From: Octopus sinensis
Taxonomy: Eukaryota
DNA: 64,000 nt
Assembly (NCBI RefSeq): GCF_006345805.1
Contig: NC_043013.1
Coordinates: 39,990,001-40,054,000 of the forward strand
Direction of reading: 5' to 3'
A program made the position numbers and the translations under genes. The notes below the pieces were generated by a model. The model had not been told where the DNA came from. It did no database searches and worked only from the letters and a program-made list of their open reading frames with translations. This document shows, piece by piece, positions 6,737-60,287 of the stretch; the first letter of the stretch is position 1, and the number at the start of each line of letters is the position of its first letter.

Positions 6737-7097
6737 ATCCTTTCTACTATAGGCACAAGGCCTGAAAGTTTGGGGGAGGGTCTAGTCGATTACATCCCAA
6801 AAGGATGAAAGGCAAAGTCGACCTCGGCGAAATTTGAACACAGAACATAGCGGCAGACGAAATACCTATTTCTTTACTACCCACAAAGGGCTAAACACAG
6901 AAGGGACAAACAAGGACAGACAAACGGATTAAGTCGATTACATCGATCCCAGTACGTAACTGGTAGTTATTTAATCGACCCCGAAAGGCTGAAAAGCAAA
7001 GTCGACCTCGGCGGAATTTGAACTCAGAACGTAACGGCAGACAAAATACGGCTACGCATTTCGCCCGGCGTGCTAACGATTCTGCCAGCTCGCCGCC
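6737..7097 (-). mobile_element. SINE family A tandem/nested pair (Tx1-tail unit joined to a headless ATT-tail unit)
   Basis: Two A-family units; junction AATACC|TATTTCTTTACTACCCAC at 6866/6867. Confidence 0.85.
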
Positions 7098-7650
7098 ATA
7101 ATCTAACATAAATTTTCAATAGAATATTTATAGATCTCTTTAAAAAAATACGAAGTTTGTATCATAAAATCGAGTACTGTTTCAGATTGGCTAGTATTAT
7201 ATAGATTAATAGTCAGGAAATATATAATCTTAACTAGAATTGATCGCATATATTTAGACATATACTTAAATCCTTAATTAACTAATGTTATTGCTGGATC
7301 TTCTGATAAAGAAATTGATTTAGATAAGTTCTATGATGTTTCTCATTTTCCAATGAGATTCGTTTCTTAATGTTGTGGTTGCTTTTCTTTAATTCTAGAT
7401 CAGCTCTGACTTATCAAAAGATATTCTGCTCATTAACATCCTATCTTTCTTATCGTTATTCCGTGTGTTCTTCCTGCTTTAAGACAGTACGATGTTGAGG
7501 AATATTTAACTGTTGTTTCAAGCATGTCTAGCAGCCACCTGGAGAAAGACCTCTGGAGTAGATGTAATCGACTAGCCCCTCCCCAAAAATGTCTTGCCTT
7601 ATGCCTATAGTAGGAAGATTATTGTTGTTGTTGTTGTTCGTGTTTTTGTG

Positions 7651-12632: not shown

Positions 12633-13677
12633 TTCAGTAGTTTTATTTTTATAGTGTGCTTTCACTTCACTACCGAGCGCAGCTCTGTGTGCCTTGGGTA
12701 TGTGCTGTGATTTGTTGTGATGCTCTGATGGTTATTGAATGGAAAGTGTTCTGCGTAGGATGTGTGCAGTGCCTAGTAGTGCAATTTTCTGTATGTTATA
12801 TGTGTTTGTAAGTCCTGGTGTTTTTGTTATGTATTTGTCTGAATATTTTTTTATCATGCCTAATGCACCTACTATGATAGGAATTGTTTCTGTTTTCAGA
12901 TTCCACATTCTAGTTACCTCTATTTCTAGGTCTTTGTATTTTGAGAGTTTCTCCATTTCTTTTAGAGACACGTTGTCATCTGCCGGTATTGATACATCAA
13001 TTAGAAAGCATTTTTTTTCTTCATGATCTCTGACAACTATATCTGGTCTGTTGGCCTTAATTTCTCTATCTGTGTGTATCGGCATATCCCAGAGTATGGT
13101 TGCTTTCTCGTTTTCTGTGACCTTTTCTGGTGTGTGCCTATACCATCTTTTTTCTGTTGTTATTCCATAATGTTGGCATAGCTTCCAATGTATGTAGGTT
13201 CCAACTCTGTCATGTCTGTGAATATATTCCTTCTTAGCCAGGACTGGGCAGCTAGAGATAATATGATTTATTGTTTCTTGTCCATCTCCACATATTCTGC
13301 AGTTACTTGTAATATTTCTTTTCATTACATGTTTTTGGTAATTTCTGGTGGGGAGGCTTTGGTCTTGTGCTGCAATTAAAAATCCCTCTGTTTCTGCTTT
13401 GAGTCCTGAGCTTCTCAACCATTGCTGGGATTTTTCTTTGTCTATTTCTTTTGCGTTTACTTTAGTGCTGTATTTACCATGAAGGGGCTTTTCTTGCCAT
13501 CGTTTTATCATGGTTCGTTGCTGTTCTATTTTTAGTTTGGATTTCATTTGTTTTATAGCTTTTGTTGTTTCTTCATCATCTTCTTCTTCTTCTTCGTGTT
13601 TATTAGGTGGTATGATTTCTTGTTTGTATTTGTCAGCTTCCTTAAATACTGAGAACAGTTTTTTGTTTTGCTCGTGT
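12633..13677 (-). mobile_element. R4/Dong-like non-LTR retrotransposon, 5'-truncated, flanked by (TAA)n
   Basis: Contains ORF 12732-13547; (TTA)n tracts at 12612-12632 and 13678-13750. Confidence 0.9.
12732..13547 (-). CDS. C-terminal CCHC zinc finger plus restriction-like endonuclease of R4/Dong ORF (partial, intact frame)
   Basis: CRICGDGQETINHIISSC; RHDRV; NRPDIVV..LIDVSIP..EKLSKYKDL; PIIVGALG; QKIALLGTAHILRR. Confidence 0.85.
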   Translation of the reverse strand: MKSKLKIEQQRTMIKRWQEKPLHGKYSTKVNAKEIDKEKSQQWLRSSGLKAETEGFLIAAQDQSLPTRNYQKHVMKRNITSNCRICGDGQETINHIISSCPVLAKKEYIHRHDRVGTYIHWKLCQHYGITTEKRWYRHTPEKVTENEKATILWDMPIHTDREIKANRPDIVVRDHEEKKCFLIDVSIPADDNVSLKEMEKLSKYKDLEIEVTRMWNLKTETIPIIVGALGMIKKYSDKYITKTPGLTNTYNIQKIALLGTAHILRRTLSIQ

Positions 13678-13686
13678 TTATTATTA

Positions 13687-13749
<63 letters not shown>

Positions 13750-13750
13750 T

Positions 13751-14135
13751 CCTGTGTTAGACTTTTGCTTTGTATTTATGCAAGTTGGGTCCAAGTCTCA
13801 ACTAAAAAGACATCAAGAGACAACAAGTTAGAAGTTCAAGTTGGTGTTATGCCTGGGGTGTCATCTATTTGGTTTTGCACATTGTATTATTCTAGAGAAT
13901 CTTTAAGAAAATATAAGAAAAGTATGTGTTTGTTCTAAAATTTGAGATTACATAGACAGTGTCTCACGTAGGATATGGACAGTTCCAATGAGCACTATTT
14001 TTTGGAATTTCTTACATTTTGGGGTTTCTTGGTATCTGAGCTAGGTAAGAATCGGCCCCTTTAGCTATCATTCCTAGGGCACCTATGACAACAGGCATTT
14101 TTTTAGTCATGAGGTTCCACATTTTGCCAATTTCT
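13751..14135 (-). mobile_element. Second, older R4/Dong-like 3' end
   Basis: Minus strand EIGKMWNL..PVVIGALGMIAKGAD...QKIVLIGTVHILRETLSM*, then a 3' UTR ending in (TAA)n. Confidence 0.8.
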
Positions 14136-15111: not shown

Positions 15112-16232
15112 AAAATTTTACTTATTTCTTTTATAAGCTTATATGTTTATCTACAGCAATAACTTCCTAAGGTCCTTAACTTCTCACATCCATCTCGGCC
15201 TCATCTTCTGGATGTAAGTGGGGATAGTGGCAGGTTGTATAGTCTTGATATTTCATTTGTTTCTGTACGTCAGGCTTTTCTGCGTGACATTATATTTCTA
15301 AAATTTTACTTATTTCTTTATAAGCTTATATGTTTATCTACAGCAATAGCTTCCTAAGTTCCTTAACTTCTCACATCCATCTCGGCCCCATCTTCTGGAT
15401 GTAAGTGGGGATAGTGGCAGGTTGTATAGTCTTGATATTTCATTTGTTTCTGTACGTCAGGCTTTTCTGCGTGACATTATATTTCTAAAATTTTACTTAT
15501 TTCTTTATAAGCTTATATGTTTATCTACAGCAATAGCTTCCTAAGTTCCTTAACTTCTCACATCCATCTCGGCCCCATCTTCTGGATGTAAGTGGGGATA
15601 GTGGCAGGTTGTATAGTCTTGATATTTCATTTGTTTCTGTACGTCAGGCTTTTCTGCGTGACATTATATTTCTAAAATTTTACTTATTTCTTTATAAGCT
15701 TATATGTTTATCTACAGCAATAGCTTCCTAAGTTCCTTAACTTCTCACATCCATCTCGGCCCCATCTTCTGGATGTAAGTGGGGATGTGGCAGTTTGTAT
15801 AGTCTTGATATTTCATTTGTTTCTGTACGTCAGGCTTTTCTGCTTGACATTATATTTCTAAAATTTTACTTATTTCTTTATAAGCTTATATGTTTATCTA
15901 CAGCAATAACTTCCTGAGTTTCTTAACCTTTCACATTCATCTCGGCCCCATCTTCTGGATGTAAGTGGGGATAGTGGCAGGTTGTATAGTCTTGATATTT
16001 CATTTGTTTCTGTACGTCAGGCTTTTCTGCGTGACATTATATTTCTAAAATTTTACTTATTTCTTTATAAGCTTATATGTTTATCTACAGCAATAACTTC
16101 CTAAGTTCCTTAACTTCTCACATCCATCTCGGCCTCATCTTCTGGATGTATGTGGGGATAGTGGCAGGTTGTTTAGTCTTGATATTTCATTTGTTTCTAT
16201 ACGTCATGCTTTTCAACGTGACATTATATTTC
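15112..16232. repeat. Tandem minisatellite, ~187-bp unit x ~6
   Basis: AAAATTTTACTTATTTC recurs at ~15112, 15300, 15487, 15674, 15860 and 16047; units nearly identical. Confidence 0.95.
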
Positions 16233-16597
16233 AATAGTTTCACATATTTAGATTCTCATTACATGTGCGCTGAACGGTCTTTTATGAGAATTTGACTGAC
16301 AGAAACACAATTTCGCGATGCGGAGATGAATATATTTTATGGTTTAGTGTGTATGTGGGGGTGTGCGCGCGCACACGTTTGTATTTCATATCCGGTCACA
16401 TTTTACTTTCAATTATCTCTTTGTATTAGCTGTACTTACATATAACACTTTCCTTGTGTATATATGTGTAGTCTTATGAGATCAAATGTTCGCGCTCGTA
16501 CGCTTGTAGACACACATACACGCACAAACACGTACATGCTCGCACACGCATGCATACACTCACATACACGCACATGCACGCATACACAGATAGATAT

Positions 16598-28173: not shown

Positions 28174-31100
28174 AATAATAATGTTCGTCCTTCGGTTCGA
28201 AGATGACCAACCTGACATCATCTGATGGAACTGCCGCCATGAGACCGGGAGGTGCTGGTGAGGCCAATCCGGGCAAGGAGCCCCTCCCACAGTGGGGCAG
28301 AGTGGGTAGGGGCAGTGCTACTGGTGCAGGCGGCTCTAACTTTTACGCATCTGACTTTCTGCTCCGCTGACCGAATCCGTCCCTCCTCGGCTGTCCTTCC
28401 CCAACGGTGATTGCGCTGCGCCAGGATGAGCGGTTGGCAGCAAGTGTCTCCCAGGTCTCTGTTCCGATGGAGAAGTCTTTTAGAGAGCCTTGAGACTATC
28501 CTTGAAGCGCTTTTTTTTTCTCTGCCCTCCGCCTTGCGCCTGCCCTGGCCGAGTTCACCGTAGAAGAGCTGTTTTGGGATGCGAGTGTCGGACATGCGGG
28601 AGACGTGGCCCGCCCATCTCAGCTGGGCCTTGCGCATGATTGTGATGGTGCTAGGGAGATCTGCCTGCTTCAGAACTTCCGTGTCTGGGACTTTGTCCTG
28701 CCAGCGGATGTGAAGGAGATTCCGAAGACACCTGAGATGGAAGTGGTTTATCTGGGCTCGTGCCTTCGGTAAGCAGTCCAGTCTCGCAGCCGTATAGTAG
28801 AGTGGTAAGCACGACTGCCCGGTAGACTTTCAGCTTGGTGTTGAGGCTGATTCCTCTCCCGCGCCAGACTTTCTTTCGCAGTCTCCCAATGCGCTGCTTG
28901 CCTTGGAGATTCTGTTGATGGTTTCAGCATCTATGTTGGCAGCATTGCAGGGAGAGTGCTGCCCAGGTAGGTGAAGTTTTCCACCACTCGTAAGATCCTT
29001 CCGTTCACCCTTATCTGAGGCTCATGGTATTGTTTGCCGGGGGGGGCTGCTGAAACCATCACTTCGGTTTTCTTTGCACTGATGGTGAGACCGAGTTGTC
29101 ACAGGCTGATGAGACCTGTCCATCTCGAGCTGCATCTCCTGCTCATCGATTGCATTAAGGCGCATCGTCAGCAAAGAGAAAGTCTCTGACGACTGTCTCC
29201 CTCACCTTTGTGACAGCCTGCAATCTCCTGGAGTTGAAAAGTTTCCCGTCTGTCCTGTACTTGATGTTGATACCGGACTTGCAGTCCCTAAGGCGGTCGG
29301 ACAATCATTGCCGAGAACATGATGCTGAACAGTGTTGGGGCCAGGACACAGCCCTGCCTGACTCCGTTGGTCACCTGGAAGGCTTCAGATGAGTCGCCGT
29401 CCTCAAGGATTCTGGCTGTCATTCCGTCGTGGAACTGGCGGACAATTGCAATAAATTTGCTGGGGCAACCAAATTTTCCCATGACCTTCATAGTCCCTCC
29501 CACTGACTGTATCAAAGCCTTGGTGAGGTCAACAAAGGTCATGCAGAGGTCAAGGTGCTGCTCCATGCATTTCTCCTGGAGCTGGCGGGCGGCGAATATC
29601 ATGTCAGTGGTCCCTCGACCCGCACGGAAGCCACACTGGCTCTCAGGGAGAAGGCCTTGCTCCAAGTGTTCCAGAAGCGGTCAAGCAGGACCCGGGCCAG
29701 GATCTTGCCTGCTATGGACAAGAGGGAAATACCTCGGTGGTTGTCGCAGGACTGCCGATCTCCTTTCCGCTTATAAATGTGGACGATTGTTGCATCCCGG
29801 AAATCTTGAGGGAGTTGTTCCCTGTCCCACATCGACTGGAACAGGTTGGTGAGCTGACTGATCATGGTGGGGCCTCCCGACTTGAACACCTCTGCAGGGA
29901 TGGCGTCAGAGCCTGGAGCTTTGCCGGTGGACATTTTTTTTGATGGCTCTGCTCACTTCCCCGACTGCAGGGGGAACAGCCAACTCGTGGTTTGTCGGCA
30001 CCTGGGGGAGTCGTGCGATGGCTTCCTCGTTGATCTGGGCTGGTCGGTTGAGCACGATGTTGAAGTGCTGCCGCCCATCTCTCCAGGATCAGCCTCTTGT
30101 TAGTCAGAGTGAGGTTCCATCTGAGCTGAGCAGGGGCGTTGATCCAAAGGAGAACTGCGGTCCATAGACAGCTTTCAGCGCCTCGTATAATTCTTTTCTG
30201 GTGTCGCCGTATTTGTCTGCGTATCCCTGAATCTCATCCGCCTTGGCGCTTAACCATGCATCTTGCATGAGGCGGAGTTTAGCCTGGACTGTGCTGCGAA
30301 TGTTGTTTGAAAGCGGCCTTCTTTGCCGTGCAGGTGGTGTCATTTTGGTGAGCCCGCAGCAGACGGCGGTTCTCTCTTCCAGGAGCTTTTGGATTTCCTG
30401 GTCGTTTTCCGTCGAACCAGTCCTGGTGGTTCCTCGTAATTTGGCCCAGAGTTTCAAGGGCGATGGAATGAACCGTGTCCCTGAATGATTCCCACTGCTC
30501 ATCGATGCTGGACTGGTCACTCCGAATGTCCAACAGCTTACTGTCCATACGTGACTGGAGATCTTGTGCAGTCAGCTGGTTCCCTAATTTCGTGATGTTA
30601 AGCTTCCTCGTCACTTCTGACCCTGTGGTCTTCTCTTAGGTGGATGTAGAAATCCATCCTGGAGATGATGAGGCGATTGTCCGTCCAGCAGTCAGCTCCG
30701 CACATGGCTTTGACCAGTCTCACGTCCCGCCTGTCTTTCGCCCTGACGATGACGTAATCTATCAGATGCCAGTGTTTGGAGCGTGGATGCATCCATGATG
30801 TCTTGTTGCGTGTTGGCAGACGGAACAAGGTGTTGGCGATGGTAAGATCATGGAGAGGCACACCACGCAGGAGGAGTTGTCCGTTGCTGTTGCACTTTCC
30901 GATTCCTTGCTTTCCCAGTACGCGATGCCAGGCTTGGTGGTCAGTCCCGACACGGCGTAAAATCCCCAGGAGGATGAGCTTCCCAGGCTGAGCTGACGTG
31001 ATGAGAGAGTCGAGTTCCTCATAGACCTGTCCTTAACTCTTCAGGGTTGTCATGGTGGGGCGTAAGCACTGATGATGGTCGCACTAGTCTTGTTTCCAAG

Positions 31101-40025: not shown

Positions 40026-40156
40026 TAGATAGATAGATAGATAGATGGATAGATAGATAGATAGATAGATAGATAGGTAGGTAGGTAGGTAGGTAGGTAG
40101 GTAGGTATGCAAATAGACAGACAGACAGATAGATAGATAGATAGATAGATAGATAT

Positions 40157-40317
40157 GTTTCTTTATTAGCACACAGGGCTGCACACAGATAGAACAAATT
40201 ACAAGGTAGAGCTTTTCTTTTGAAGGTATTAAAAAAAAAAAAAAAAAAAAAAAAAGGAGGGGGAGGTTCGATCAAAAGGGATCGTAAAAGGAGAGAAAGA
40301 GGACAAAAATAAGGGGG

Positions 40318-40349
<32 letters not shown>

Positions 40350-40494
40350 AGAGGAAAAAAAATGATCAATAGGGATCGTTATCACAGAAATGTCAATATG
40401 AAGTGTAAAGGGGAGGACAGGTGAGTTTTACCGTGGAAAGAAAAGCCTGCGAAAAGACCACGGTAACCTCGGTCAATGATTCACATTTTAATTT

Positions 40495-40527
<33 letters not shown>

Positions 40528-41303
40528 AAATAAGCAACTCTCTGTTTTCGATTTCTGGGTTCATAGACTATGCTCAATTGGCTTCGTCATTCATACGTGC
40601 CATTCTTGCTACATCACCCATCTTTTTTTTAAAACATTCGCTAGACAACAAACTTGCCTCTCTACTCTCACTTTCCTTTTCAAGTGGTACTTGAAGAAGT
40701 TGATGAGAGATTGACCAGAAGAGGAAAGTGTTTGTCTCCAATCCTTTCAGACGCGTCCACCAGATACATTCTTTCGCCATAGCCCAAGGATGATGAAAAT
40801 AGCTCTTCCTTCCCGTTTGAAGGAAGGAGGCGTGACAATATTGACGATAGACTCAGCTGATAAACCGACTCGTCCCACCACGTGACAGCAGTTCTTCGAC
40901 ATAAGCCCACATGTCGGAAATTGTTGGACACTGAACGAGTGCGTGCAGAACGGTTTCGTCGCTCTGACCGCATCTCGGGCAGGTCGGCCCCGTGTTTCTC
41001 GAGCCGTGTCTGGTAGCTTATCCCGAACGGTTAGCGCTTCTCGAGCACTGCCAGGCCAGGGATCTCTGGAAGTTGGTCCATGGGCCCTGGCCCGAAAGTC
41101 GTCCCGAACAGGCGGGTCAGGTACTCCTCGTCGACGTCCAGGTTCGCCCCGAGCTCGTCGTCGTACCTCCCCTCCACTAAACCCCTATAGAATGCTTTGG
41201 TTGTGTTGAAGTCACTTAAGGTCGACCCAGGAGGGCAGAGTTGCTTGAGAGCAACGCGACACTCGCGGTGCCATTCGCCCTCCTCGCCTCTTTTTGATCC
41301 ACG
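40157..41303 (-). mobile_element. Tx1-clade (L1-like) LINE, 5'-truncated copy 1 inside (GATA)n
   Basis: Near-identical to 41379-42431; frameshifted zf-RVT region plus 3' UTR ending AATAAAGAAAC. Confidence 0.85.
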
Positions 41304-41329
41304 AGATAGATAGATAGATAGATATAGAT

Positions 41330-41370
<41 letters not shown>

Positions 41371-41378
41371 ATAGATAT

Positions 41379-42430
41379 GTTTCTTTATTAGCCACACAGG
41401 GCTGCACACAGACCGAACAAATTACAAGGTAGAGCTTTTATTTTGAAGTTTAAAAAAAAAAAAAAGGAAGGGGAGTTTCGATCAAAAGGATCGTAAAAGG
41501 AGAGAAAGAGGACAAAAAAAGGGGGGTGTTAACAAAAGGGGGGAGAGGAAAAAAATTGATCAATAGGGATCGTTCACAGAAATGTCAATATGAAGTGTAA
41601 AGGGGAGGACAGGTGAGGTTTACCCATGGAAGGAAAGCCTACGGAAAAGACCACGGTAACCTCGTTCATGGAGTCACATGTTATATTTCTTTTTTTTTTT
41701 TTTGCGAATAAGCAACTCTCTGTTTTCAATTTCTGGTTCATAGGATCATGCTCAAGTGGCTTCGTCATTCATACGTGCCATTCTTGCTACATTCAACCCA
41801 TCTTTTTTTTAAAACATTCGCTAGACAAAACTTGCCTCTCTACTCTCACTTTCCTTTTCAAGTGTACTTGAAGAAGTTGATGAGAGATTGACCAGAGAGG
41901 AAAGTGTTTGTCTCCAATCCTTTCAGACGCGTCCACCAGATACATTCTTTCGCCATAGCCACAAGGATGATGAAAATAGCTCTTCCTTCCCCTTTGAAGG
42001 AAGGAGGCGTGACAATATTGACGATAGACTCAGCTGATAAACCGACTCGTCCCACACGTGACAGCAGTTGTTCGACATAAGCCCACAGGTCGGAAATTGT
42101 TGGACACTGCACGAGTGCGTGCAGAACGGTTTCGTCGCTCTGACCGCATCTCGGGCAGGTCGGCCCCGTGTTTCTCGAGCCGTGTCTGTAGAGCTTATCC
42201 CGAACGCGTAGCGCTTCTCGGTAGCACTGCCAGGCCAGGGATCTCTGGAAGTTGTCCATGGGCCCTGGCCCGAAAGTCGTCCTGAACAGGCGGGTCAGGT
42301 ACTCCTCGTCGACGTCCAGGTTCGCCCCGAGCTCGTCGTCGTACCTCCCCTCCACTAAACCCCTATAGAATGCTTTGGTTGTGTTGAAGTCACTCAAGGT
42401 CGACCCAGGACGGCAGAGTTGCTTGAGAGC

Positions 42431-42431
<1 letters not shown>
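41379..42431 (-). mobile_element. Tx1-clade LINE, 5'-truncated copy 2 inside (GATA)n
   Basis: Contains ORF 41858-42397; GATA repeats at 41304-41378 and from 42432. Confidence 0.85.
41858..42397 (-). CDS. ORF2 C-terminal zf-RVT domain fragment of Tx1/L1-type LINE
   Basis: SLAWQCYREALRVRDKL..CPRCGQSDETVLHALVQC..LW..AKECIWWTR matches the L1/Tx1 CCHC C-terminus pattern. Confidence 0.8.
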   Translation of the reverse strand: MSDFNTTKAFYRGLVEGRYDDELGANLDVDEEYLTRLFRTTFGPGPMDNFQRSLAWQCYREALRVRDKLYRHGSRNTGPTCPRCGQSDETVLHALVQCPTISDLWAYVEQLLSRVGRVGLSAESIVNIVTPPSFKGEGRAIFIILVAMAKECIWWTRLKGLETNTFLSGQSLINFFKYT

Positions 42432-42515
<84 letters not shown>

Positions 42516-42632
42516 GTAGTTAGGTAGGTAGGTATGTAGGTAGATAGGTAGGTATGTAGGTAGGTATGTAGGTAGGTAGGTAGGTAGGTAGGTAGGTAGG
42601 TAGGTAGGTAGGTAGGTAGGTAGGTAGCTAGC

Positions 42633-43209: not shown

Positions 43210-43850
43210 TCTTTTTATTTGTTTCAGTCATTAGACTGCGACCATGCTGGAGCACTGCCTTGAAGAAAGTTGGATCGAATGAACTGACCTTTTTTTTATT
43301 CTTTATAGTACTTATTCTATCGGTCTCTTCTGCTGAACCGCTAAGTTAAGGAGACGTATACACACCATCACCGGTTGTCAAGCGGTGAAGATGGACTAAC
43401 ACAGTCACAAAGACACACACACATACACACACACACACACACACATATATCTTTTACTTGTTTCAGTCATTTGACTGCGGCCATGCAGGAGCACCGCCTT
43501 TAGTCGAGCAAATCGATCCCAGGATTTATTTTTGTAACCCTAGTTCTTATTCTATCGGTCCCTTATGCCGAATCGCTAGGTTCCTGGGACGTAAACACGC
43601 CAACATCGGTTGTCAAGCGGTGCTGAGGGAACAAACACAGAAACACAAACATATACACACACATACATATATATATAATATAAACATATATACGACGGGC
43701 TTCTTTCAGTTTCCGTCTACCAAATCCACTCACAAGGCTTTGATCGGCCCGAGGCTATAGTAGAAGACACTTACCCAAGGTGCCACGCTGTGGGACAGTA
43801 CCGGGAACCATGTGATTGGTAAGCAAGCTACTTACCACACAGCCACTCCT
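43210..43850 (-). mobile_element. Two SINE family B copies (43210-43415 3' half; 43452-43850 full)
   Basis: Match to 2254-2710. Confidence 0.85.
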
Positions 43851-52334: not shown

Positions 52335-52998
52335 AGGCGGTAAGCTGGCAGAGTCGTTAGCGCGCGGGGCAATGAAACTAAGTGGTATTTCGTCCGTCCT
52401 TATGTTTTGAGTTCAAATTCCGACGAAGCCGACTTAACCTTTCATTCATAAGTACTAATCGAGCACTGGTATCGATCTAATCGACTATCCCGCTTCAACA
52501 GAATTTCAGGCCTTGTGCCTTTACAAGAAAGGATTACTAGAAGGCGGCGAGCTGGCAGAAACATTAGCACACCGGGCGAAATGCTTGAGCTGGCAGAAAC
52601 GTTAGCACGCCGGACGAAATGCGTAGCCGTATTTCGTCTGCCGTTACGTTCTGAGTTCAAATTCCACGCTTGTCGACTTTGCCTTTCATCCTTTCGGGGT
52701 CGATAAATTAAGTACCAGTTACGCACTGGGGTCGATATAGTCGACTTAATCCGTGTGTCTGTCCTTGTTTTTCCTCTCTGTGTTTAGCCCCTTGTGGGTA
52801 GTAAAGAAATAGGTATTTTGCCTGCCACTAGTTCAAATTCCGCCGAGGTCGACTTTGCCTTTCATCCTTTCGGGATCGATTAAATAAGTACCAATTACGC
52901 ACTGGGGTCGATATAATCGACTTAATCCGTTTGTCTGTCTTTGTTTGTCCTCTCTGTGTGTAGCCCCTTGTGGGCAGTAAAGAAATAAGAAAGGATTA
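52335..52998 (+). mobile_element. Triple-nested SINE family A cluster
   Basis: ATT-tail copy 52335-52536; Tx1-tail copy 52541-52987 with TSD AAGAAAGGATTA (52525-52536 / 52987-52998); third copy 52587-52811 inside its head. Confidence 0.9.
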
Positions 52999-56907: not shown

Positions 56908-57324
56908 GCAAACACGCACGTGTGTACATATATATATATACACACACACACAAACTCATACATACATACACTCACACACATACACACACACACACATACA
57001 CTCACACACATACACACGCACAAACAATCCTCTCCTTCCACATAGGATTCGTTCCGGAAAACGACGCACGAAAACTGAGTTTCTAAATCTCAAATAATTG
57101 AATTATATATATCAAGTGCTTCCGTTTCTCTGTAAGTTGCACTATCACTCTACAAGATTCTGACATATTCAATATAAGGAGAACCATCTCCACTCCTTTT
57201 ATCAATTTCTCTGTCATCTGCTGCGTGTATACAATCATTTGCAATGATAAAATATAGGGATTCACCTCGGCTCCATGCAGATGGAGGGAAACATAACTTG
57301 ATCAAACTTAATTAGTAAACAATA

Positions 57325-57750
57325 GGCGTAAACATGGCTGTGTGATAAGAAGCTTGCTTTCTAACCACATGGTACCGGGTTGGTCCTACTATGTGACACC
57401 TTGAGCAAGTAGCTTCTACTTATAGGCTCGGGCCGACCAAAGGCTTTGTTAGTGATTTTGATAGATAGAAATTGAAAAAAGCTTGTCGTATGTGTATGTG
57501 TGTGTGTGTGCTTGTGTATGTGTGTGTGCATGTGTGTGCGCGCGTGTGTCTGTTTGTCTTTGTGCCTGTGTTTGTCCTCCCACCACCACTTGACAACCAG
57601 TGCTGGTGTGTTTACGTCCTCGTGACTTAGCCGTTCGGCAAAAGTACCATACTTAAAAAGTATAAGTCCTAAGATCGATACATTCGACTAAAAATTCTTG
57701 AAGGCGGTGCACCAGCATGGCCGCAGTCTAGTGACTGAAACAAGTTTAAA
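57325..57750 (+). mobile_element. SINE family B (a degenerate head follows at ~57800-57935)
   Basis: Match to 1658-2050. Confidence 0.8.
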
Positions 57751-58055
57751 AATTACAACGAAAAAGGATAATAATATATTAATAAACTTACGTGCAGAAG
57801 GGGTGTGTGCTTAAGAAGCACGGTTGGTAACCACGTGGGTTTGAGTTTAGTTCCACTGCGCGGGATCTGCGGCATGTGTCCTCCACTATAACCCCGGGCT
57901 GACCAATGCCTTATCAGTGAATTTTGTAGAAACTTGTCTTGTGTGTGTGTGTATACATACACACATACATATATACACACATGCATGCACGCATACATGT
58001 TTGGCCACTAAATCTACAAGACTTGTTTTCATTCTCTGTTTATTTTCTCTTATTC

Positions 58056-58091
58056 CTTTCTGTTGAAGAGCGTTGGCTCGAAACGTAAAAG
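58056..58091 (+). ncRNA. Candidate minimal type-I hammerhead with variant core (CUGUUGA)
   Basis: CUUU-CUGUUGA-a-GAGC(guug)GCUC-GAAA-CG-UA-AAAG; palindromic ACGU stem III. Confidence 0.45.
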
Positions 58092-58309
58092 ACGTTTTCA
58101 TTATCTCGAGCGTCAAACTAATACACCTGTTTGTTGCTCATATACCTGACTTCGTTTTTGCTTTTCTATAAACTTCAACTATATATATTTAATTATATAA
58201 TTATATATATATAATTTTTTTACATAATTTTTTAATATAATTTTCTAAAAACTATATATATATAATATAATTATATATATATAATTTTTTTATATAATTA
58301 TATATATAT

Positions 58310-58856
58310 AATTTTTTACATGTTAGACCACTGGAGGTGAAAATTTTAGTTAATTTTCCATTTCCCTTTGATATGTTTAAGTATTATAATTTTCGATTTT
58401 AAAAGCTGGCATTTTTTATTGCCGGCGAAGGGCTGTGTCTGCGCAGTGGATTTTGAAAAATTAAGATATATAAACAGGAGGCATATAGTTTGATTGCCTC
58501 GTTGTTTATATATTTAACCCAAGGTGTACCTGTTGAGGAAGATTTCACTTCGTGAGCAAATATTATTTATTTGCTTGCTAAACTAAAATCAGAAACCAAT
58601 TGGTCCAGGAAACTTGTTGGTAAAATGTTTTTATTTTTTCATTTCGTTCCTGTCGAATTTTATCTTTAATTTTTGTGGTTATGGAACCTAACTGTTCTTT
58701 CTAACGTGTTGAATTCCACGAGTGGATTCCTTATGTGCTTAAATGTACGCTATATATTATGACTAATTCATAGTCTTTGGGGACTAAATTTTTTACACGT
58801 TAGGCCACTGGACGTGAAAATTTTAATTAATTTTCCATTTCCCTTTGATATGTTTA
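58310..58856 (+). mobile_element. Terminally redundant 477-bp unit between (TA)n tracts (retrozyme or Penelope pLTR-like)
   Basis: ~69-bp direct repeat at 58310-58379 and 58787-58856; internal hammerhead fold. Confidence 0.6.
58529..58609 (+). ncRNA. Candidate type-I hammerhead ribozyme (C3>U in this copy)
   Basis: CCUG-UUGAGGA-long stem II-GAAA-CCAAUUGG-UC-CAGG. Confidence 0.6.
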
Positions 58857-58861
58857 TATAT

Positions 58862-58908
<47 letters not shown>

Positions 58909-59504
58909 CCCTTTCCACCAACCATATATTGTCGATTCCGCCATCTTGTACAAGAGACTCTAGTAATGAAATTTTTTTAAATCGTGTATTAAATTTATGT
59001 ATGTAAACTCTTCCGGCAACCTGGCGTTATTGACTCCATCACTTCCTCCCAAGAGACACTAATTTTTTTATTGAAAACATTCCAGATATTTCTATCCAAT
59101 GCACATTCTCTTAGGCTAAGTCTGTCACACGCTATTTAACAGCTTTCCTCGTGTAATTTCTCTTGACGGTTGATATTCCCGCTTCATCCATTGGCTGAAT
59201 TCCATTTGCGTTAAAGGCAATGACTTCTTTAATTTCACGATAAACTTCCTTCATGGTGTCTAGCAGCATTATCTAGAAGAATCTTTGCCTTAAATCTTAA
59301 AGACTATTATGATGATATTGTGGTGTCCTGGCGTCGATTTCTTTACAATCATAAATGAACAGAAAATCGTTTACAGGAATATTGGATTTGAATCTACAGA
59401 GATAATATTCTGCGAAAGTAAATGCTTTTCCGTTTATTAAATTTCATAAATAAACTATTCTAGAGTTGTCTATTTTTGGAAAAACTGAAATATATAAAGC
59501 AAGA

Positions 59505-59665
59505 AAAGGTGGCAATTTAGTAGAACCATTAGAGTTGCGGGGAAAATACCCTGAGAAATTTCTTCTCCCTTTCTACATTTTGAGTTCAAATCTTCCAAGG
59601 TCGATATCAAGTAGAGGGGTCGAGCAAATTGACTGTCTTGTTCTCAAAATTGCTGGCCCTGTGTC
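59505..59665 (+). mobile_element. Degenerate SINE family A
   Basis: GAGTTCAAATC B-box, AAAATTGCTGGCCCTGTG tail. Confidence 0.55.
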
Positions 59666-60287
59666 TAGAACAGGAGGATACACGTGGGTGGAATTAGTCC
59701 ATTCTGTCAGAATGGACTAATTCTGAATGGACTGAATACAACAGGAGGATAAACGTGGATGGAAGAGCCGCTGAAGAGGTCACAGATGTATGGCGAAAGA
59801 TTTCCAGACAATGGACATAAGATGAAATAAGAACGATAATAAACGAGTGAAGAACAAATATACAGTGCGTGTGTTCATTTAGCAACAACAACAAAATGAC
59901 CGTCCCGAAATATAACAATATGTGATTCAACACTCGATTTCACATCAGGAATCTCGCAACACAAAATTCATAAACGTCAATCCAGGAATCCTTACACAGC
60001 AATAATATAGAATATTTTAGCAGCTAGGTTGTAATACACAGCAAGAATCTGAATTACAATTAAGTGGATACAAGATATAAATTTGGAAAGCTCACAGGTG
60101 AAATGAAAGATGAAAGTTTGATGGAGTATCATGTGCAGAGAGCTTAGCTTCATGTATAGTCATGATTCCACCTGCATGGAAACATAACTTCAGACACCCA
60201 CATATATACACACGCACGTGCAAGCACATATGCTTTTAAGGTTGAATCTTGAAGAAAGAAGTAAGAAAGAAAGAAGGAAAGAAAGAC

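Follow-up and report, generated by a model that had tools for sequence, protein, structure and literature searches.

The question raised by this locus is whether a hammerhead-like RNA motif, lying in a short non-coding unit whose ends are repeated, marks a mobile ribozyme element or a chance string in a locally duplicated piece of DNA. The initial annotation, made from the letters alone, had favored a non-autonomous ribozyme retroelement. The window, that is, the whole 64-kb stretch of DNA analyzed here, is repeat-rich animal DNA with LINE remnants (Table 1). One of these remnants (12735-13775) has 573 homologues, and the named ones come from marine animals with 47–64% identity. The window also contains a tandem array of ~188-bp units with 94–97% identity (15112-16249), a direct duplication of 1.2–1.3 kb with 87% identity (40079-42512), and SINE-like repeats of at least two families, which are abundant and occur many times on either strand (e.g., 1410-2713, 6794-7101, 43213-43850, 52335-52988 and 57322-57764).

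Architecture of the Repeated Unit

Regarding the unit at 58310-58856, a ~69-bp direct repeat bounding a non-coding unit of about 1.14 monomers had been described, and both statements were borne out. The segments 58310-58379 and 58787-58856 form a 70-bp direct repeat with four mismatches (66/70 identical, 94.3%) at a spacing of 477, and the whole unit of 547 bp corresponds to 547/477 = 1.15 monomers. The 70-bp 3′ end thus precedes a full monomer as a partial tandem that forms a pseudo-LTR, and the same junction recurs in other contigs. The longest Met-started frame in the unit has 14 codons and the longest stop-free stretch 55 codons, even when the monomer is circularized; in the frame scan, no reverse transcriptase (RT) or GIY-YIG frame was detected within the unit. 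Self-comparison revealed no second copy of the unit in the 64-kb window.

The unit had also been placed between two (TA)n tracts. This holds for the right flank (58855-58907), which is pure (TA)n, whereas the tract on the left (58180-58309) is rich in TA but degenerate, with internal repeats that resemble the junction. Both flanks, which were inspected for a long target-site duplication, are TA repeats. Short repeats like the 5′ junction of the element lie inside the left tract (e.g., 58213-58235 and 58283-58305), and they perhaps arose from slippage or repeated priming. The preceding stretch, 58015-58180, stops at this TA-rich tract in the manner of the 3′ end of a Penelope-like element (PLE). 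On the other side, beyond the (TA)n tract, lies a broken frame on the minus strand (58970-59269). It is reminiscent of a pogo-type transposase motif; this suspected pogo-like remnant gave no Pfam match and was set aside.

Table 1. Features of the unit and its surroundings, in window coordinates
Feature	Position	Strand	Basis
Upstream terminal repeat, last 70 bp of a 5′-truncated preceding monomer (pseudo-LTR)	58310-58379	+	Hairpin fold
Full monomer, 477 bp, non-coding	58380-58856	+	GC 32.5%, strong fold, family membership
Downstream terminal repeat, the family 3′ end, running into (TA)n	58787-58856	+	Self-comparison; depth continuing into 58851-58866
(TA)n tract, likely target site	58855-58907		Sequence
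Degenerate TA-rich tract, 5′ junction	58180-58309		Sequence, self-comparison
Type I hammerhead-like motif, U3–G8 core, predicted cut after C58605	58529-58609	+	Sequence, descriptor and shuffles, energies; no Rfam match
Stem III palindrome, 10 nt	58595-58604	+	Descriptor, energies
11-bp hairpin extending stem II	58552-58578	+	Fold, family variants
Long accessory hairpin of the monomer	58461-58516	+	MFE and centroid
Second minimal hammerhead-like motif, within 58015-58180	58056-58091	+	Descriptor match at 58060
LINE remnant, zf-RVT	12735-13775	-	Pfam
LINE remnant, RVT_1	29291-29680	-	Pfam
LINE remnant, zf-RVT	41861-42631	-	Pfam

The Hammerhead-Like Motif

The parse of 58529-58609 as a hammerhead with the core UUGAGGA and a palindromic stem III stands as first proposed. 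Stem I (58529-32/58606-09, 4 bp) leads into the core (58533-39), which is followed by a single extra base (58540). Stem II (58541-45/58586-90, 5 bp) starts with G10.1–C11.1 and is extended by an 11-bp hairpin (58552-62/58568-78); an extra unpaired A (58591) precedes GAAA (58592-95), the palindrome (58595-58604) and the GUC triplet (58603-05). The three stems (4, 5 and 3 bp) with an open-ended stem I give the type I layout, and G12 A13 A14, the A15.1–U16.1 pair and H17 are all present (GAAA at 58592-95, U58604 and C58605). The canonical core C3 U4 G5 A6 N7 G8 A9 with its 3–8 pair is absent, since 58533-39 has U3 opposite G8. An alternative parse, which takes CUG at 58530-32 as C3-U4-G5, was rejected because no stem I is left and stem II is poor. 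The palindrome is predicted to adopt either a monomer fold (3 bp and a 4-nt loop) or a 10-bp dimer (−14.4 kcal/mol).

A type I descriptor with one core mismatch allowed, written after the motif was seen, matched twice in the 64-kb window (the unit motif and a site at 58060); in 30 shuffled windows, the mean number of matches was 0.1. Shuffling of the unit gave any descriptor match in 2/2000 cases and a match with a palindromic stem III of at least 6 nt in 0/2000. The covariance-model check suggested with the initial annotation turned out negative: no Rfam hammerhead matched at the gathering score over the window or at E ≤ 1 over 57500-59700. Rfam microRNA matches, which were below threshold and on a CA/TA tract, were rejected.

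The active fold of the motif lies 2.3 kcal/mol above the MFE (−17.0 versus −19.3 kcal/mol), because G8, A9, A58540 and G10.1 of this copy pair with 58548-58551. The MFE of the monomer, whether linear or circular, lacks stems I and II. At A58540 and U58549, this copy has the minority letter, as C accounts for 64–75% and 76–87% of depth in the family, respectively; therefore, the competing hairpin over G8–A9 is predicted to be restricted to this copy or its branch.

The second descriptor match, ~450 bp upstream of the unit motif, has the core CUGUUGA (A6U) followed by an extra A, 4-bp stems I and II, and a 2-bp palindromic stem III (fold z −0.84), and it has no second copy in the window. It is likely the 3′ end of a neighboring PLE remnant outside the unit. 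The string CUGUUGA is common to both motifs, in different registers.

A High-Copy Family with a Fixed 3′ End

Parts of the unit are present in 20/24 listed sequencing runs (four organisms, ten studies); none of these contains half of the unit's words, and none is recorded as an RNA run. Four runs were aligned at an identity of at least 80%: X1 (organism A), X2 (organism B), X8 (organism D) and X15 (organism A; a run only guessed to be RNA). The matching contigs number 1178 in X1, 1186 in X2 and 519 in X8 and cover all 30 bins of the unit, and X15 adds 58 contigs over 27/30 bins, which carry no strand, end or circle information. Relative to the median of the eight long pieces listed per run, summed depth in X1, X2 and X8 is ~3400, ~3400 and ~1300 at 58585-58603, ~150, 230 and 80 at 58537, and ~50, 80 and 40 at 58433-58451, respectively; these ratios are rough, as summed depth is no copy number and differences along the unit are confounded by the divergence of this copy. 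We take the copies of the family to number hundreds or thousands. The window letter is in the minority in X1, X2 and X8 at 23/40 listed variant places, so this copy lies several percent from the family norm.

The depth in X1 is 24151 at 58832-58850 and 21471 in the TA junction bin (58851-58866). In three contigs of X15, a (TA)n loose end follows the terminal repeat. Other loose ends run into the monomer start, and a further one, before 58312, resembles 58760-58790. The fixed 3′ end and the head-to-tail junction therefore recur elsewhere. The upstream exit points of the long pieces vary (58316, 58412, 58417, 58465, 58503 and 58634), giving a shared 3′ end at a microsatellite together with variable 5′ truncation, although the 5′ ends could partly reflect divergence. 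Fourteen joints were found, of which nine skip a part, one goes back and four switch strand (one contig each); inverted 5′-truncated pieces thus occur at some insertions. No aligned contig of the four runs spans the whole unit or shows two tandem hammerheads, and the present locus likewise has one motif instead of the two or more tandem units, with a complete hammerhead each, by which Li 2026 defines an active retrozyme.

These data bear on the second half of the opening question. A local duplication in unique DNA or in an unrelated repeat, with a fortuitous hammerhead-like string inside it, would fit the lack of an Rfam match, the core mismatch, the single occurrence in the window and a descriptor tailored afterwards. 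It is nevertheless scarcely credible, being largely refuted by the family data. The contig counts in three runs, the recurrent junctions and the 0/2000 shuffles all speak for a multi-copy, non-coding element with a hammerhead motif and the insertion anatomy of a PLE, and in this respect the initial annotation is supported; GAAA, stem III, GUC and stem I are without listed change at the deepest coverage.

The steep depth profile invites another reading, in which ~58510-58856 would be the 3′ UTR of an autonomous PLE with thousands of 5′-truncated copies; the 477-bp unit would then be a minor derivative in which an internal deletion has brought the 5′ and 3′ ends of that PLE together. We regard this as unlikely. 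In its favor, summed depth over 58585-58603 exceeds that over 58433-58451 by a factor of ~30 to 60, unlike sequence extends for hundreds of bases upstream in some long pieces (e.g., 1204 nt before 58465 in X2 record 19), and 409 loose ends lie outside those listed. The listed loose ends, however, are unit-like or TA-rich and none is coding-like; run-on into unlike sequence makes up only 2–3% of the aligned DNA, and in three organisms the 5′ half, too, occurs in many copies and has subfamily variants.

Fold and Variation across Copies

The 477-nt permutation 58310-58786 folds with a z score of −4.63, and 0/100 shuffles are equally stable. Variation across copies was analyzed from the 40 listed of 94 differences, 37 of which fall in the folded monomer; the three in the second repeat were left out. 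In the long accessory hairpin (58461-58516), three of the four listed variants keep pairing and one breaks it. In the hairpin extending stem II (58552-58578), 6/6 listed variants, though unphased, fit the pairing, including two double-sided changes: C–G to U–A at 58557/58573 and A–U to G–C at 58562/58568. A further double-sided change, C–G to U–G or U–A, lies at 58738/58745. Among the 13 listed variants in pairs with a probability of at least 0.9, eight keep pairing alone, three do so with the change of the partner and two break it. These pair-preserving variants point to a conserved structure with moderate strength, since the variants are unphased, a transition yields a wobble pair by chance in half of the cases, and correction of palindromes at the DNA level can imitate covariation.

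The expectation that the hammerhead stems covary is so far unsupported. Covariation-like pairs occur in the accessory hairpins, whereas stem I, stem II proper, stem III, GAAA and GUC show no change among the 40 listed of 94 differences, which is conservation and not covariation. Inside the core, only N7 varies among the listed differences, with G replaced by A at 20–32% in X1, X2 and X8.

It had further been asked whether C3 is restored in the family, and this was not seen: position 58533 does not appear among the 40 listed of 94 differences, all of which reach at least 24% in some run. As the listing threshold was 5% and every listed difference nevertheless attains at least 24% in at least one run, the absence of 58533 suggests that U3 is the common letter in the nearest copies, and the same applies to G8. 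The U3–G8 core is thus probably shared and amplified among the copies nearest this one, a reading that is biased to copies like this one and rests on a core depth equivalent to roughly one hundred copies per run. This core depth amounts to ~5% of the value over GAAA/stem III. Among the loose ends there are subfamilies in which stem II differs, with a blurred consensus that is compatible with C3 as well as with U3.

A bolder proposal would be that an uncompensated U3–G8 core is carried by a retrozyme-like family that has reached hundreds or thousands of copies in several related animals. We consider it rather unlikely. If it holds and U3–G8 cleaves well with the aid of the long stem II and the palindromic 10-nt dimer stem, the natural hammerhead consensus would widen, and searches with CUGANGA would miss whole families. 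If the family has spread without cleavage, it would provide a direct test of the need for a hammerhead in PLE-driven mobility.

A Proposed Model for Mobilization

Taken together, we think it quite probable that the unit is a worn solo copy of a high-copy, protein-free family with a hammerhead-like motif, mobilized in trans by a (TA)n-targeting PLE. According to the available text of Craig 2021 (PMC8557442), the hallmarks of PLE insertions are truncation at the 5′ end, partial tandems, inversion of some copies and a (TA)n bias; the partial tandems (pseudo-LTRs) are usual in PLEs whether or not these carry a hammerhead, non-autonomous head-to-tail derivatives have been noted, and the role of the hammerhead in PLE mobility is stated to be unclear. 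In the proposed mechanism, source loci with two or more units would be transcribed, and hammerheads, acting as monomers or as dimers joined through the palindromic stem III, would trim or circularize the RNA. A PLE of the Hydra, Neptune or Naiad type would nick a (TA)n target and prime synthesis there, and the RT and GIY-YIG endonuclease of the autonomous PLE would likely copy the family into TA microsatellites. The 70-bp redundancy is likely to arise when reverse transcription starts at the family 3′ end and continues beyond one unit on a template RNA that is tandem or circular, and most insertions would be 5′-truncated.

The present copy is predicted to have been dead on arrival or to have decayed, because it has a single hammerhead, U3 opposite G8, and a competing hairpin created by A58540 and U58549. 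With one hammerhead at the locus, no monomer would be released from this locus alone. As for the autonomous partner, none of the 35 frames of the window scanned with Pfam is a PLE frame, the only RT-related ones being LINE-type RVT_1/zf-RVT and far away. Seven short motifs of the unit gave no match in the portion of the Craig 2021 supplement that was available, and the 3′ end of Hydra-1_Obim is, by eye, unlike the unit, with only the style of stem III in common.

A stronger sub-case of this PLE-mobilized explanation is the classical retrozyme cycle, in which tandem arrays with C3 in the master would self-cleave, a 477-nt circle would form and the 1.15-mer would record reverse transcription round that circle. 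It seems to us possible but somewhat doubtful. The strong fold of the monomer and the head-to-tail junctions in other copies agree with it, and circles are shown for coral, mussel and axolotl repeats in the accessible part of Cervera 2020 (PMC7229834); in the corresponding part of Li 2026 (bioRxiv 10.64898/2026.07.22.740005), however, only 1/9 predicted frog retrozyme dimers cleaved in vitro. The 3′ end of the insertion is located 251 nt beyond the predicted cut, which means that the template included the cut site, but PLEs of the Hydra clade likewise extend beyond their hammerhead, and the same partial tandems are produced by Naiads, which lack one (Craig 2021, PMC8557442, as far as available). 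The depth in X1 falls from 17646 at 58518 to 6300 at 58537 and stands at 140000 over GAAA/stem III, and this dip implies that a larger subfamily with another core, possibly C3, may escape alignment there. C3 is nevertheless missing from the 40 listed of 94 differences, and the aligned contigs show no tandem of two hammerheads.

The terminal redundancy is explained as well by ordinary pseudo-LTR formation of a PLE as by a circle. As Naiads make the same structures without a canonical hammerhead, a circular and an uncut multimeric template are indistinguishable at this locus. Since the core is not canonical and two tandem hammerheads are lacking, the unit is filed as a non-autonomous Penelope-type element with a hammerhead-like motif. 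By analogy, it would work like a non-LTR retrozyme; the family appears to be new and the kind already known, and repeat libraries or the supplements of papers may contain it.

Comparison with Known Systems

The repeats around the unit give the impression of an octopus-like host. In the sources accessible to a literature search, no retrozyme report for octopus or cephalopods was found, only the PLE hammerheads of Craig 2021. The terms "hammerhead", "ribozyme" and "retrozyme" do not occur in the available text and supplement of a 2026 paper on O. vulgaris repeats, and De la Pena 2017 makes no mention of cephalopods. Viral, metagenome and prokaryote collections contained no match to an 18- or 20-nt stretch of the motif. 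A looser pattern gave at least 119 metagenome loci, and none of those listed folds as a hammerhead or resembles the unit beyond the pattern; these are therefore chance matches. Since such elements are already known from cnidarians to amphibians, one more family adds modestly to the picture. An abundant family whose copies apparently share a U3–G8 core and whose subfamilies differ in stem II would offer a cheap natural test of the role of the hammerhead in PLE mobility. A study by Lunse et al. in 2017 on small PLE hammerhead variants may already describe U3 or A6U cores, and so may the supplements of Cervera 2020 and Li 2026.

Regarding the core, position 3 is variable among natural hammerheads, as judged from the accessible parts of the respective papers. 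U3–A8 covariation occurs naturally (Perreault et al. 2011, PMC3088659) and is also found in ~1300 matches in Schistosoma PLEs (Cervera and de la Pena 2014, PMC4209133), and a halophile hammerhead variant has U3 and G8 together with a 2-base insertion (PMC7151607). In contrast to these, U3 of the present motif faces G8 without an insertion, apparently in many genomic copies.

The metazoan non-LTR retrozymes, sister to PLE pseudo-LTRs and often solo monomers according to the available part of Li 2026, differ from the unit in several respects, within the portions of PMC7229834 and Li 2026 that could be compared. At 477 nt, this short, low-GC unit in many copies is slightly longer than the 150–450 bp of Cervera 2020 and inside the 51–972 bp of Li 2026; no array of two hammerheads was seen, U3 comes without A8, and the long stem II bears an 11-bp hairpin. 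Both are non-coding, low in GC and strongly folded, carry one type I motif, reach high copy numbers, include solo monomers and are likely mobilized by PLEs.

The pseudo-LTR hammerheads of PLEs (Hydra clade, PLE-X1_cBra; PMC4209133 and PMC8557442, in the parts available) provide the second comparison. Compared with them, the unit has no RT/GIY-YIG frame, extends 251 nt from the cut site to the 3′ end, has U3 whereas the canonical entries of Craig 2021 File S2 all have C3, and gave no sequence match to the listed elements. In the same file, as far as available, the hammerheads of the Hydra clade and PLE-X follow one plan, with the core and a single base, then stem II, then a single base before GAA, and a stem III of the form AC..GU. 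The likeness to this plan is close: the unit shares an unpaired base after A9 and before G12, G10.1–C11.1, a short stem I and a palindromic stem III starting with ACC/AC, as well as the placement of the motif before the 3′ end. The insertions agree, too, in their (TA)n targets, partial tandems, 5′ truncation and inverted junctions.
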